64,000 nt of DNA from IMG/VR virus record IMGVR_UViG_3300032257_000479, positions 105,506 to 169,505 of that record. The stretch is one strand, 5' to 3'. The first letter of the stretch is position 1, and every line of letters begins with the position of its first letter. The position numbers were made by a program, and so were the translations under genes. A model generated the notes under the pieces. It was not told where the DNA came from. It saw only the letters and a list, made by a program, of their open reading frames with translations, and ran no database searches. The stretch comes from a virus. Below are positions 53,922 to 63,620 of the stretch, piece by piece.

Positions 53922-54245
53922 TTACTCGAACGCTACCAGCATACTGACCGCATCATCGTCCTGGCCTGTTGGCTCAATGTAATCGAGGACCAGCATTTGA
54001 GCAGCCTCATCAGTCATTGATCTCCGCTCTCTGTTTTCTTGATCGGTCTCAATCTCTGCATTGATTACCTTGAATGATCGAGCTGTAAGCTGTTCGATGC
54101 TCTCCGCTCTTACTTGGAACTCTCCTGATCCATTGCTTGTTGATGTATCAAAGCGTTCTGTTGGATCGCCTTCGGGGAAGTCATCTTCCATAACTCTGGC
54201 TGGACATGATACGGATACGATGAGGGTTGGAACTAAAATTCGCAT
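53922..54245 (-). CDS. small array gene, hypothetical
   Basis: AAGGAGA SD after a repeat unit. Confidence 0.7.
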   Translation of the reverse strand: MRILVPTLIVSVSCPARVMEDDFPEGDPTERFDTSTSNGSGEFQVRAESIEQLTARSFKVINAEIETDQENRERRSMTDEAAQMLVLDYIEPTGQDDDAVSMLVAFE

Positions 54246-54343
54246 GGTTTATCTCCTTTGTTATCTCTCATTGGGTATTGCTGTTCATCGGTGATTACTG
54301 AGCACCCATCTTATTGTTGTGTTTCCCCTTTCGGGGTTGAGGT

Positions 54344-54649
54344 TTAGTCCTGTCCTACCCAATATACCGTGTTTCCCTTTTGGAGTTCTTCGAGGGTTGA
54401 TTGGACTTGGTATGCTGAATCCCAATAAACTTTGCCGATTTTTGTGTAGTTTCCATCGTCGTCTTGCTCTCCCTCTTGAGTGATGATTGATCCATCTGTG
54501 AGGGCTCCGACGACTTCTGGTGGTATCCATTCCCATTCATTACAAGTATAATCTTCAAATACTTGTCCGAGGTCTGTGCATTCCTTGAGTTCTTCTAAGT
54601 CATCAGGAACGATTTGCAAGCCTTTGTCTGTCTCTGTGATTGTGATCAT
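54344..54649 (-). CDS. small array gene, hypothetical
   Basis: AAGGAGA SD after a repeat unit. Confidence 0.7.
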   Translation of the reverse strand: MITITETDKGLQIVPDDLEELKECTDLGQVFEDYTCNEWEWIPPEVVGALTDGSIITQEGEQDDDGNYTKIGKVYWDSAYQVQSTLEELQKGNTVYWVGQD

Positions 54650-54689
54650 GATTTGATCTCCTTTGTTGTCTTACAATGGAGTTTTCATT

Positions 54690-55091
54690 TCATCGGTGAA
54701 TTTTTTCTCTCAGTTTTTCTGTATGTTTCTTTAACCGCTTTGGGACTTCAATAAGATTATATCCAATGGATTCTAATTCTTTTCGGATTGGTTCTATTTC
54801 TTTTTCTGTTGGTTTTGTTGTTGAATATTTTAGGTCGCCGCTTTGTGAGTATTTCCATTGTTGTGAATAACTAGCGCAATACAATATATTGTTAGTTGTT
54901 GGTATTTCGGGGAATACTGCAATAACTTTCCCTCCAGCTTTAAACTTTCGATAATAGACAATGAGATCATCTTTTTGATCTAGAACATTTTGCATATGTT
55001 CATTTGCTTTTCCTTGATGCTCAGAGATGTCTATATTATCCCAATCCCAATCTTTCGGGTCTCCGATTTCTTTTCCTTGAACATTCTTCAT
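54690..55091 (-). CDS. small array gene, hypothetical
   Basis: Start reassigned to MKNVQG; stop lies inside the CACCGATGA box. Confidence 0.6.
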   Translation of the reverse strand: MKNVQGKEIGDPKDWDWDNIDISEHQGKANEHMQNVLDQKDDLIVYYRKFKAGGKVIAVFPEIPTTNNILYCASYSQQWKYSQSGDLKYSTTKPTEKEIEPIRKELESIGYNLIEVPKRLKKHTEKLREKIHR

Positions 55092-55092
55092 A

Positions 55093-55338
55093 TTAAGACT
55101 TTTTGTTTCTGTGTTCTTGGTTTCCCATTTCAGCCTTGATGAATCGCCGGTGGTTGGAGGGCTTTTCATCCTTATTAAACCATTTGATGAGGTCTTTACC
55201 GTATTGGTTGATATCTCCATTGAAGTGTGGTTGTTGTCCGTGTCCTCTGATTGTTTTGCCTGGTCCTTCTTCTCTTTCGATGTGTTCCCAGTCGATCTCT
55301 CCGTTTGAGTATTCTACTTGTATGCTGAATGATGTCAT
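55093..55338 (-). CDS. small array gene, hypothetical
   Basis: AAGGAGA SD. Confidence 0.65.
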   Translation of the reverse strand: MTSFSIQVEYSNGEIDWEHIEREEGPGKTIRGHGQQPHFNGDINQYGKDLIKWFNKDEKPSNHRRFIKAEMGNQEHRNKKS

Positions 55339-55364
55339 TGTTTTGTCTCCTTGTTATTATCTAT

Positions 55365-55655
55365 TCATTCCGCGAGAATATCGGTGAAATCAATATCATT
55401 GATAATGATCCATGCAACGGTTTGTCTGATTGTTGTTTTGATGAGTCGTCCTTTTCCATCTTCTCTTAGATATTCAGCTTGTCCTAAGTATCCAAATGTC
55501 CAGCCTAGATGGTTGATTCCCTCATTGATAAGAGCAGTCTGCTCTCTGGCAGTCATATCCTCATAATTCCCGAGAACCTTGCTCATTTGGTCGTCTGTTG
55601 CTGGCTCTAAGTTATCGAACTTGTATGATTTGCAGATGATGTTAGCTGAGGGCAT
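55365..55655 (-). CDS. small array gene, hypothetical
   Basis: AAGGAGA SD. Confidence 0.7.
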   Translation of the reverse strand: MPSANIICKSYKFDNLEPATDDQMSKVLGNYEDMTAREQTALINEGINHLGWTFGYLGQAEYLREDGKGRLIKTTIRQTVAWIIINDIDFTDILAE

Positions 55656-55764
55656 CGTTGTTCTCCTTGCCTCTTATCTATTTGTTTTATTTATCGGTGA
55701 GCTGGCTATCCACCCATCTTAGTATGGTTAAACCCCTTATGGGGTAAACCTGTCAACTCCCTTC

Positions 55765-56031
55765 CTATTTATCTACTGGTGCTTTTTTGAGCATTGAGAT
55801 TACGGTATCAATGTTCTCGATTTCTTCATCTGGTCCCTCATAATCATCTGGGGACTCTTCTACTCGTTCTTTGCATCCTTCGAGCCATTGGATGCTATTG
55901 GTTCGATGCTCTTCGGTTTGGACTTTGAGCGGGCCTTCTCCGCTGAATCCATACATACATGCTCCTGGGTCTCCTCCTGTCATATATGATCCCCAAGTTG
56001 CCATGAATTGAACCGCTTCTTGATCGTTCAT
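55765..56031 (-). CDS. small array gene, hypothetical
   Basis: AGGGAGA SD; WGSYM..GDPGACMYGF. Confidence 0.7.
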   Translation of the reverse strand: MNDQEAVQFMATWGSYMTGGDPGACMYGFSGEGPLKVQTEEHRTNSIQWLEGCKERVEESPDDYEGPDEEIENIDTVISMLKKAPVDK

Positions 56032-56071
56032 TGTATTTCTCCCTTTGTTATCTTACAATGGGTGCCCGTGT

Positions 56072-61806: not shown

Positions 61807-61920
61807 AGTTGTCTCCTTGTTGCTTATAATCGGAGAGAATAGCTATTCGGTGTAAGAATCTCACTCATCTTACTTTTCCTCGGAGAAATAAAAAATCCCC
61901 ATTGCTGGGGATATGGTTTC

Positions 61921-62148
61921 TTATTGCTGTTTATTTGCAAGATCTTCGGAGTCAAACTCGGCTATCACTTCGGGTTCACCAATATCCTTATTCTCTTTAG
62001 TTTTATGCGAGTCTTTACCGCAAATAGGGCCAATTTCGGCTTGGCATTTTTCAGACCAGGCATATGGTATCCATTCTTGCTCTCTTGTTTCTTCTTCGGT
62101 TGCTGCTGCTCCGCAAAAAGAGCAAACATATCCTTTATTATTCATCAT
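61921..62148 (-). CDS. small Cys-containing array protein
   Basis: AAGGAGA SD; CSFCG...C. Confidence 0.65.
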   Translation of the reverse strand: MMNNKGYVCSFCGAAATEEETREQEWIPYAWSEKCQAEIGPICGKDSHKTKENKDIGEPEVIAEFDSEDLANKQQ

Positions 62149-62318
62149 AGTCTCCTTATTATCATTCAGCGGAAGACTTCCCTATTCGGTGTAAGCCATT
62201 CAGTGGCATGATCTCACCCATCTTATTGTAAGACACTAGCTCGCCCCCTCCGTTGCACCCCTTGATTGTCTAAAGAATCAAAGAGTGGGAGGATTTAGAC
62301 GGGGACTGAGCCTTTTCG

Positions 62319-62543
62319 TTATGCGTTCAATCTTTTCAGATTGCGGTGGTCATCAAGCATTGGGACTACTGATGATACGCCTTTTACGATTGCAATATCT
62401 AGTCTATTGCTATTTACTGCGTTGGTTTCGACTGCTCTTTCAATTGCTGTTTCGAGTGTTCCAATATGGTCTTGAATCCAAGAGCCGTTTACTGTTCCAT
62501 TCGAGTTTGTTTGATATACATTGATGAGTGAGAAAGTTGTCAT
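62319..62543 (-). CDS. small array gene, hypothetical
   Basis: AAGGAGA SD. Confidence 0.65.
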   Translation of the reverse strand: MTTFSLINVYQTNSNGTVNGSWIQDHIGTLETAIERAVETNAVNSNRLDIAIVKGVSSVVPMLDDHRNLKRLNA

Positions 62544-62581
62544 TGTTTTGTCTCCTTGTTATCATTCAGTGTAAGGAAACA

Positions 62582-62818
62582 TTATTCGGTGAAAGACTCT
62601 TGCATAACTTCATCATAGCATGGGTCGTCAATAATCTTTCCTTCATTCTCATCGAGGAAGTTCATTGCTTCTTCATGGTCGCATTCTAGACCTGCTCCGA
62701 AAGTTTCAGCCAGCCCAATAATATCTGATTCGCTTTGAAAGAATAATTCTCTCTTTGGGTTATCGGGGGAATAAGCGAGCCAGCATCCGAACGGTTGAGA
62801 TTTGTATGTGAGTTTCAT
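62582..62818 (-). CDS. small array gene, hypothetical
   Basis: ATG exactly 24 nt after an ACCGAT box. Confidence 0.65.
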   Translation of the reverse strand: MKLTYKSQPFGCWLAYSPDNPKRELFFQSESDIIGLAETFGAGLECDHEEAMNFLDENEGKIIDDPCYDEVMQESFTE

Positions 62819-62821
62819 ACT

Positions 62822-63169
62822 CTACTCCTCTCCGTCGAGTTTATCGGTGGACGCAAAGTATCCTTCTTCGATTGCTTTATTTGTTTGTTCTCTACTGAAC
62901 CCTAAAGAGGATGCTAATAGATGCAGTTGGTTATCTGCTTCAGCCTTCGCTTTTTCTGTCCATATGGTTCGATCCATTGCCCATAAGTCTTGAACAAGAT
63001 CATGCAGGTAAGTTTCTGCTGCTTTTACGAGGGTTGAGAAGTTATCTCCCTCTACGAGTTCCTTGATAGCAAGAATCTGAGTGCCTGCTGTATCTAGACA
63101 GACTCCATCATCCGGGTCATCATGGATGGCCTCGTTACATGCATTTAGGATTTGTTCTTGAATGTTCAT
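62822..63169 (-). CDS. small array gene, hypothetical
   Basis: AAGGAGA SD. Confidence 0.7.
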   Translation of the reverse strand: MNIQEQILNACNEAIHDDPDDGVCLDTAGTQILAIKELVEGDNFSTLVKAAETYLHDLVQDLWAMDRTIWTEKAKAEADNQLHLLASSLGFSREQTNKAIEEGYFASTDKLDGEE

Positions 63170-63206
63170 TGTTTTCTCCTTGTTATTCTATTTCCGCGGA
63201 AAAGAA

Positions 63207-63521
63207 TTATCGGTGATCTCTCGATTCAAAGAACGACCAGAACGCCTCAAGGGTATTCTTTCCGTCAAAGTAATCTGAAAACTTTACGCCGTATTCTGCA
63301 AGGATGCCCCAGCCGCCGTCGCATTCTTCTGAACCCTTGCCGTCGATACGAACCTCAAATGTCCAATCCCCATACCGCTCATCCTTCTCAACCTTCGTGA
63401 CGACCCCTTGAGCCCCGACGATCAACTTTAGACCGGCATCGCCATGATCCTCTGTATGGACTTCGACTCGCTCTCCGACTCTTGGGAATCTGATTATAAC
63501 TGTTGATTTGCTCATACTCAT
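63207..63521 (-). CDS. small array gene, SH3/KOW-like beta protein
   Basis: P.VG.RVEV........G..GVV..V; no SD; stop lies in the next box. Confidence 0.6.
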   Translation of the reverse strand: MSMSKSTVIIRFPRVGERVEVHTEDHGDAGLKLIVGAQGVVTKVEKDERYGDWTFEVRIDGKGSEECDGGWGILAEYGVKFSDYFDGKNTLEAFWSFFESRDHR

Positions 63522-63620
63522 CTTTTGTATTTGGAGTTCATCGGTGACTTGATGCCACCCATCTTATTAGCATCACCCCTACAACCCGCATTTACGGGGA
63601 GGGGAACAAGGGAGCGTGAT

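Follow-up and report, generated by a model that had tools for sequence, protein, structure and literature searches.

The last 64 kb of the viral contig IMGVR_UViG_3300032257_000479 (IMG/VR; positions 105,506 to 169,505 of 169.5 kb, estimated completeness 25%), a stretch of 64,000 nucleotides (nt) that we call the window, derive from an uncultured marine phage with a genome of roughly 470 kb and contain an array of small genes, almost every one of which is preceded by the word CACCGAW in a unit of fixed geometry. With a probability of roughly 0.7, these repeats are bipartite promoters, one per gene, that carry a word specific for the phage lineage, are read by a phage-encoded factor and double as joints of gene cassettes. 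Each box would be the upstream half of a compact promoter for one small gene, with T-CACCGA-W at −32 to −25 and a short Y-R-W block that resembles a −10, begins 17 bp after the hexamer and has T at −8 in this lineage. Transcription is predicted to start at the A of position 32, with a pyrimidine before it, and the RNA would begin either with a very short leader (AACAAGGAGA, 5–7 nt, ATG) or directly with AUG, i.e. leaderless. From sequence comparison we infer this start site, the use of the host core enzyme, which would presumably be redirected, and a phage-encoded specificity factor, most simply a sigma-like one. The segment of about 50 nt from box to start may also act as a homology joint for the gain, loss and replacement of cassettes. 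What holds up as new is a promoter class that has an unusual geometry, uses lineage-specific words and both serves and shuffles an accessory block of 50–60 kb; the class would be dedicated to this one large block of ORFans in a clade of 460–490 kb phages. In the following, position 1 is the first C of the box, box B or B unit denotes the stretch from the CACCGAW box through the predicted +1, and element A is a separate repeat located upstream.

The repeated unit and its genes

CACCGAW occurs 26 times in the window, where 7.5 ± 2.6 copies are expected and none of 100 shuffled sequences reached 26. Twenty-two copies lie on the minus strand within 9.3 kb (54287–63546), which confirms, by count and by shuffling, what a sequence-only reading of the window had claimed; outside this cluster the whole 169.5 kb contig contains just nine further copies, scattered over both strands. 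The array itself (53922–63962, minus strand) consists of 26 small co-oriented open reading frames (ORFs) of 57–312 amino acids (aa) and forms the downstream end of a larger block, the rest of which lies beyond the end of the contig. A blastp comparison among the 26 ORFs gave no match better than E 0.03, which argues that the repeats are not a by-product of gene duplication. Family matches are restricted to DUF932 (58466–59404), one PHROG of unknown function and one marginal Lar-like hit, with no confident family for the other ORFs.

Alignment of the 22 units shows that C1, A2, C3, C4, G5 and A6 are invariant and that a T directly precedes the box (position −1) in 17 units. Further downstream, T24 is present in 19, a pyrimidine at position 31 in 21 and A32 also in 21 of the 22 units, by which the earlier claim of exactly 24 nt between ACCGAW and an A is borne out. 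Positions 31–41 form the leader TAACAAGGAGA, followed by the ATG at positions 44–50. Conservation is lower at position 7, which is T in 16 of the 22 units (36 of the 71 pooled units of this lineage), and at position 8, which is A in 11 (26 of 71 pooled). Upstream of the box no conserved positions were detected from −30 to −2 in the aligned units, nor a TAAA-like −35. Sigma-70-like sites were found 22 times, against 22.5 expected, and none coincides with a B unit; this agrees with the previous statement that the boxes resemble neither the sigma-70 nor the sigma-54 consensus. The mean minimum free energy of the box-to-start region equals that of shuffled sequence in three phages, and an Rfam search of 53000–64000 gave no match. 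A hairpin between box and start, apparent by eye in relatives, was rejected on the basis of this folding comparison. Taken with the geometry, the lack of folding excess and of an Rfam match favours a bipartite promoter over an RNA element.

Eight of the boxes are located in the preceding ORF or directly adjoin it (first C at 63215, 62849, 62591, 60707, 59937, 56080, 55386 and 54698), and three array proteins end in His-Arg-stop, both as noticed before. The units that overlap a His-Arg-stop are 63184–63216 (gene 63169–62822), 56049–56081 (gene 56031–55765) and 54667–54699 (gene 54649–54344), all units and genes of the array being on the minus strand. Units 62560–62592 (gene 62543–62319), 59906–59938 (gene 59890–59567) and 55355–55387 (gene 55338–55093) are located within the end of the upstream ORF, and unit 60676–60708 (gene 60660–60367) abuts the upstream stop codon. 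In two copies (62849 and 63546) the ATG itself occupies the predicted +1, which had also been claimed: unit 62818–62850 has it at 62818, where gene 62818–62582 begins, and unit 63515–63547 at 63515. Unit 54262–54294, with T-CACCGAT, a predicted +1 at 54262 and a Shine-Dalgarno (SD) leader, precedes gene 54245–53922. Units 55668–55700 (gene 55655–55365), 56266–56298 (gene 56251–56072), 56658–56690 (gene 56641–56378), 57162–57194 (gene 57147–56740), 60216–60248 (gene 60201–59908) and 61821–61853 (gene 61806–61471) each precede one gene as well, while unit 58341–58373 is followed by three genes (58326–58075, 58132–57746 and 57749–57564) of which the later ones have no boxes of their own. Two units carry a long leader, described below: 57475–57507 (gene 57467–57294) and 59411–59443, which stands before the DUF932 gene (59404–58466) and is conserved in a close relative (L147).

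The same geometry with other words in relatives

Relatives in IMG/VR surfaced through alignment of homologues of the contig's sigma factor, which are located on metagenomic contigs of 460–500 kb. Two of these relatives are complete, with direct terminal repeats: G001 (488 kb) and the distant relative G003 (IMGVR_UViG_3300037247_001786, 461 kb). G002 (494 kb) is classed as a provirus in IMG/VR and has an estimated completeness of 98%. Syntenic sigma loci occur on a 467 kb scaffold (ENA ERZ23500010), with a sigma that is 90% identical, and on a 487 kb contig; on the scaffold, L051 is the sigma locus and L147 the array locus, which was reached via an array protein. Orthologues of the gene that borders the array (52236–53585), a conserved marker flanking the array in all relatives, gave L055 and L057/L058. 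A megablast search of the window against cultured phages gave no match, scans of IMG/VR with exact patterns (B plus leader; A plus B) yielded single chance matches only, and single-protein searches of IMG/VR for related loci found nothing.

By their arrays, L147 and L148 are the closest relatives. They carry the same CACCGAW word, in 33 and 16 copies, all on the coding strand, and the L147 array extends at least 10 kb further upstream than the one in the window. Long arrays of small co-oriented genes are present at the corresponding place beside the border gene in L055 and L057/L058, with the word TCACATG, followed after 24 nt by T-A/G-A, in 24 units of L055 and 19 of L057; these units read TTCACATGC, then, 24 nt on as counted from TCACATG, TAACAAGGAGA or TGAAAGGGA. 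G001 has 71 CACATA(C/G) units in a block of 50 kb, 61 of the strict form CCACATAS; genome-wide, 61 of 69 forward copies of its box fall at 162–212 kb, where controls gave 9 and 7. The distant relative G003 has an array of 60 kb (367–428 kb) with about 73 copies of its own 12-nt word, TTTGCCAGAGTG, followed after about 15 nt by TTATA; 15 of the units have an ATG at one constant offset, tRNA genes lie scattered in the array, and element A is absent. In the complete relatives the array is an internal block of 50–60 kb and not a terminal host-takeover region.

The most informative units are those without an SD sequence. Leaderless mRNAs are recognized by ORFs that lack an SD and in which the spacing between the AUG and an upstream motif is constant (PMC3160421). 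SD-less ATG codons occupy positions 32–34 in 17 of the 71 pooled units of this lineage, where about 1.1 are expected by chance, and in 27 of the 71 units of G001, mostly as C-ATG-A; in the remaining G001 units TGAAAGGA starts at position 31. In L147, independent gene calls put the start at position 32 in seven of nine such ATG units, and positions 31/32 are pyrimidine/purine in 66 of 71 units. ORFs that begin at position 32 without an SD place the RNA 5' end there and, with it, the box at −32 to −25. Upstream of this point lies a second block, which begins at position 24, 17 bp after the hexamer, with T in 62 of the 71 units of this lineage and C in 44 of 47 classified units of G001 as well as in L055 and L057; this base is followed by a purine and by W. 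The arrangement matches a generic trait of sigma-70-family promoters, namely two blocks 16–18 bp apart (hexamer 1–6, 17 bp, Y24), in four lineages. The earlier proposals of a promoter-like unit with its box near −30 and a start at the A 24 nt after ACCGAW, and of leaderless variants, both gain support from these comparisons.

Relatives also bear on the reading that was initially favoured, in which the boxes are ordinary sigma-28 promoters with CCGAT(A/G)A as −10 and a start about 7 nt downstream, near position 16. The sigma-28 −10 consensus is GCCGATAA, to which tCACCGATAA is similar; a sigma of the FliA/WhiG family is encoded on the contig (19417–20244, minus strand), and a motif of CGATA, 7 nt and ATG precedes large structural genes elsewhere in the contig. 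The relatives, however, keep the exact geometry with CACATG or CACATA and have no CGAT, there is no TAAA-like −35 about 15 bp upstream, and SD-less starts, an indirect indication of where transcription begins, are found at position 32 and none at positions 14–18, in the pooled units as in G001. The poor conservation of positions 7–8 further indicates that CGATA is not selected, and the FliA-like sigma has the same recognition segments in lineages that use different words. On the relatives' words, the geometry and the start position this reading was rejected, and we regard it as very improbable.

A second possibility is that the unmodified host holoenzyme, with a housekeeping or an alternative sigma, reads the units without any phage factor and that the different words reflect different hosts. 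Immediate-early genes must indeed use the host enzyme, and in G003, which has a single sigma gene, the two blocks (TTGCCA and TATAnT) are near to sigma-70 words. Against this, neither block matches sigma-70 in the lineage of the window, the spacing to the start is atypical, and the words, invariant within a genome (71 of 71), are not the same in lineages that have patches of about 99% identity in common. We therefore consider it unlikely that the host enzyme suffices, and favour a promoter that is read with the help of a phage factor. The difference between lineages extends to both halves (CACCGA with T24, as compared to CACATG or CACATA with C24), and since both vary among lineages that continue to exchange DNA, we propose a specificity factor encoded by the phage.

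Exchange of cassettes at the units

Homologues of 8 of the 26 array genes are present in L055, in partly permuted order and with identities of 34–100%, and the comparison reveals patches of about 99% identity against a background of 73%. One block, identical at 186 of 188 positions, runs through a gene end and the terminator hairpin behind it and stops at elements A and B, where L055 has its own box. The gene behind unit 62160–62192 (62148–61921) is 99% identical to L055 in its 3' part, and a 99% block stops just upstream of the element A at 61862–61872. Gene 61050–60709, behind unit 61065–61097, is a mosaic: overall 75% identical to L055, it contains a patch of about 99%. About 20 nt ahead of box 60707 a patch of 165 nt with about 99% identity comes to an end, and homology with L148 ends 2 nt before the box of the same unit (60676–60708). 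A cassette that reaches from box to box, with unit 61375–61407 and gene 61359–61138, is common to the window and L147.

The clearest case is a cassette of three genes (63547–62600) that is present in L148 and replaced in L147. The homologous stretch begins 1 nt ahead of one box and stops 9 nt short of the following one; unit 63515–63547 is the upstream and unit 62560–62592 the downstream joint of the indel. In three-way alignments the switch falls immediately behind TCACCGA at one of these joints and immediately behind the start codon at the second. Overall, 11 of 27 block ends fall within −10 to +7 nt of a box (p = 4e-9 under a uniform null and 3e-4 under a null of gene-boundary zones); some patch ends fall inside genes. 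Since the approximately 50 nt from box to start codon are near-identical before unrelated genes, they could act as homology joints. Gene-order comparison, with these breakpoints at boxes, thereby supports the suggestion, made from the window alone, that the repeats serve in gene gain, loss and replacement.

Cassette junctions at or within a few nt of the box would also be expected if the boxes were attC-like targets of a recombinase, as in integrons, with promoter activity being secondary or absent. Yet the unit shows no folding excess and hence no imperfect-palindrome structure, no integrase or recombinase family was found among the array proteins, a fixed distance to the start codon and a Y/R context have no role in recombination, and patch ends inside genes are as expected for general homologous recombination. 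Such site-specific exchange is highly unlikely in our view, and joints formed by the promoter units through ordinary homology are preferred.

In every lineage the GC content of the array is above that of other sampled parts of the same genome, by 5–11 percentage points: 42.8 versus 37.4% for the window (53900–64000 and the rest), 42.8 versus 36.2% for L147 and L051, 57.3 versus 46–50% for G001 (162–213 kb), 45.5 versus 39.6% for L055 and 51.4 versus 42.8% for L057. This is consistent with a pool of cassettes that circulates among phages of differing base composition.

Element A and the possibility of an RNA-level signal

Element A (TARGATGRGTG) is present in 14 minus-strand copies, located 8–55 nt upstream of the box (mode 9), usually with cATAa before it and always behind a GC-rich hairpin, for example CCCC-loop-GGGG; a few of these hairpins have T tracts. 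The copies lie at 54303–54313 (TAAGATGGGTG), 55711–55721, 56307–56317, 56699–56709, 57204–57214 and 58385–58395 (the latter two behind terminator-like hairpins with T tracts), 57525–57535, 59497–59507 (the one 55 nt from its box), 60277–60287, 61105–61115 and 61431–61441 (both the variant TAGGATGGGTG), 61862–61872, 62215–62225 and 63556–63566, which is common to L147 and L148. The eight units that lack element A are exactly those without an intergenic gap, which yields a layout in which a hairpin and element A are followed by box B, leader and gene, these last three occurring one to three times in a row. In L055 and L057 the element reads TAGATCGGTGCA, and G001 has 36 copies of AAGATGGGTGC in the same 50 kb block; a core AGAT-S-GGTGC is kept across lineages that differ in B.

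Between element A and B there are anything from 5 to over 80 nt, a range that speaks against an activator site dependent on constant spacing. Element A lacks its own −35, and a few G001 genes are preceded by it alone. It could be a separate upstream promoter lacking a −35, in tandem with B as in the prereplicative genes of T4, with TAAGAT as a −10-like sequence, a G-rich discriminator and a conserved C-W-A start context; we give this somewhat less than an even chance. Against it, element A also precedes leaderless first genes, where it would place the AUG inside a leader without SD. A role tied to the terminator hairpin is possible.

The numbers of the two elements also suggest a reading at the RNA level, in which an endoribonuclease or RNA-binding protein recognizes the box in the transcript and cuts or acts 31 nt downstream, and long transcripts from element A are released as one mRNA per gene, including those with leaderless AUG ends. 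B occurs per gene and A per transcription unit (22 versus 14 in the window, 71 versus 36 in G001), which is the layout expected for a promoter (A) followed by per-cistron sites (B); moreover, the eight boxes inside upstream ORFs are necessarily transcribed through, and a ruler-type nuclease could account for the constant spacing between box and 5' end. The unit, on the other hand, shows neither excess folding nor covariation, a start in Y/R context behind two separate blocks 17 bp apart is typical of promoters, no nuclease candidate was found among the array proteins, and G003 keeps the per-gene design without any element A. Processing of this kind is improbable, though less so than the sigma-28 and integron-like explanations.

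The only copy of element A on the opposite strand (53829–53839, plus) is found at the array end, near a bidirectional terminator-like hairpin (53867–53891). A G-rich segment, TTGGGGGTATGGGG, beside the region 53829–53891 is also present at the array end of G001. The ORF at 53637–53873 (78 aa) is probably spurious, and the region 53829–53891 may represent a small RNA or a boundary element.

Possible readers of the box

Neither PF00940 nor PF00562 (T7-like polymerase and beta subunit) gave a match in the contig or in the three relatives with an estimated completeness of 98–100%, the PF00940 search having been run without a positive control. These phages, which have no detectable RNA polymerase of their own and one to four sigma genes, presumably redirect the host core enzyme. 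Sigma-family ORFs number four in G001, three in G002 and one in G003. Those of G001 (L143–L146, at 97, 134.7, 259.6 and 458 kb) comprise a FliA/WhiG-like type, a second FliA-like type of the ECF superfamily, a SigH-like type and a divergent type resembling RpoD region 2. The three additional G001 sigmas have no counterparts in the 169 kb fragment, which is uninformative as about two thirds of the genome are missing. The nearest sigma from cultured phages, that of Rak2-like jumbo phages, is 27% identical to the FliA-like sigma of the contig. The MotA DNA-binding domain PF09158 was not found in the contig, G001 or G003, in a search that had no positive control.

The FliA-like sigma probably reads a separate, late-type class of CGATA sites and not box B. 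Sites of this class, with CGATA, exactly 7 nt and ATG without SD, precede large structural and glycosyltransferase genes and are found at contig positions 4982, 5772, 15499, 55657, 72115 and 147125 (window position 41620).

Several observations weigh against a bipartite promoter with a phage-encoded reader whose units serve as joints. The predicted start lies just 8 nt beyond the base with which the −10-like block, as presently delimited, begins; this first base is at −8 instead of −12 as for sigma-70, and a standard sigma holoenzyme would be expected to start 3–5 nt further downstream. Position 25, the analogue of the essential A at −11, is merely a purine. The recognition segments of the FliA-like sigma are invariant despite the differing words, which makes the contig's own sigma an unlikely reader, and G003, although complete, has a single sigma gene and still possesses an array with its own word, from which it follows that the reader need not be an extra sigma. 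Concerning the joints, block ends at boxes are partly expected from the location of boxes at gene boundaries, and the 99% patches could stem from a common third donor rather than from co-infection.

A further-reaching and rather doubtful proposal is that huge phages that exchange DNA have private, orthogonal pairs of promoter and factor, both promoter halves being switched together. An imported cassette would then be expressed only once it has been joined to a resident promoter unit, and the closeness of the start to the −10-like block would point to a non-canonical sigma or to a factor that remodels sigma.

Comparison with known phage systems

The closest known systems are the PeSL cassettes and the MotA-box middle promoters of T4, and the units described here are members of neither. 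PeSLs of T4-type phages are composite terminator/promoter cassettes that flank ORFans and mediate their shuffling (PMC2839356, PMC4122927). Like the units in the window, they are composite intergenic repeats of about 100 bp that combine a G/C stem-loop terminator or attenuator with a promoter and an SD, are placed before ORFans in a hyperplastic block, and coincide with the joints of indels and replacements between relatives. They differ in that the PeSL promoter is a strong sigma-70-like early promoter, whereas the present one is not sigma-70-like and comprises two separate conserved elements (A and B), of which B also occurs without a stem-loop within the 3' end of a preceding ORF; a leaderless variant and a lineage-specific word exist here, and the carriers are phages of 460–490 kb with a sigma only about 27% identical to that of Rak2-like jumbo phages.

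T4 middle promoters have a MotA box centred at −30 and depend on sigma appropriation by AsiA and MotA (PMC2988021). In both cases a phage-specific word of 8–10 bp at about −35 to −26 replaces the −35 hexamer; in T4, and presumably here, it serves many small prereplicative genes and is read on the host core enzyme. The T4 promoters need a stringent −10 (TAtaaT, −12 to −7) at 12 ± 1 bp after the box, in contrast to the lineage-variable Y-R-W at −8, which lies about 16 bp after the word (17 after the hexamer). The principle of per-gene cassettes acting as joints, and that of a phage-specific box at −30, are already known from T4-type phages, and with comparable PeSL cassettes in the literature the label of an unrecognised cassette system, given to the array at first sight, overstates its novelty. 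The initial interpretation is supported in part: the promoter-like unit, the leaderless variants and the joints are supported, early expression is an assumption, and the claimed novelty does not stand.

The sigma cascades of phages are represented by gp28 and gp33/34 of SPO1 and gp55 of T4. The clade studied here is similar in having several phage sigma-family proteins and promoter classes on host core RNA polymerase, with the difference that the predicted start is 3–5 nt closer to the −10-like block than in known sigma-70-family promoters. To sigma-28 promoters (FliA/SigD/WhiG) the likeness consists of CCGAT in the word of this lineage and a FliA-like sigma encoded nearby, while the −35, the start position and the conservation across relatives all fail.

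If the units are what we propose, the principle of regulatory cassettes as recombination joints reaches beyond T4-like phages into an unrelated clade whose promoter chemistry is different. For huge uncultured phages, otherwise known almost solely through gene catalogues, sequence comparison alone gives a testable transcription map for about one tenth of the genome, which predicts an mRNA start for each small gene, many leaderless genes and a dedicated class distinct from the late CGATA class. Should phage factors indeed read the lineage words, they would provide natural orthogonal sets of promoters and factors, and the regulator could be found by co-variation. With a DUF932 gene and many ORFans, the array probably serves as a reservoir of genes for host interaction or anti-defence.

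Neighbouring genes and minor sequence features

The border ORF (52236–53585, plus strand, 449 aa) is over-extended as called; its homologues have 301–334 aa and cover 67–69% of it, and the true product is about 300 aa long. Three neighbouring ORFs at 42396–48774 (minus strand; 535, 774 and 647 aa) have C-terminal CHB_HEX_C_1 and Fn3_assoc domains in common and probably encode fibre or host-recognition proteins.

Six units carry a TTCYCGCGGAA-like palindrome on the minus strand, either within the spacer that separates the box from the −10-like block or immediately upstream of element A. The first base of CGCGG is at 63198, 60234, 58359, 56285 and 55374 (units 63184–63216, 60216–60248, 58341–58373, 56266–56298 and 55355–55387) and at 57224. 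The palindrome recurs, at varying position, in units of L055, L057, L147 and G001, and it is a candidate operator for a dimeric regulator of a subset of the promoters.

At 59406 and 57469 (minus strand) the standard leader is replaced by a long one with a small hairpin, a loop AATGA(C) and a core GAATGACC. The same variant is found across lineages, at 13944 in L147 and at 11637 and 15654 in L055, including before the DUF932 gene. A recurring word, CCACTGAATGG or CTGAATGA, is located upstream of the box at 62206 and 60262 and in the spacer at 62569 and 62169, and three L057 units have ATCACTGAATGG directly upstream of the box.

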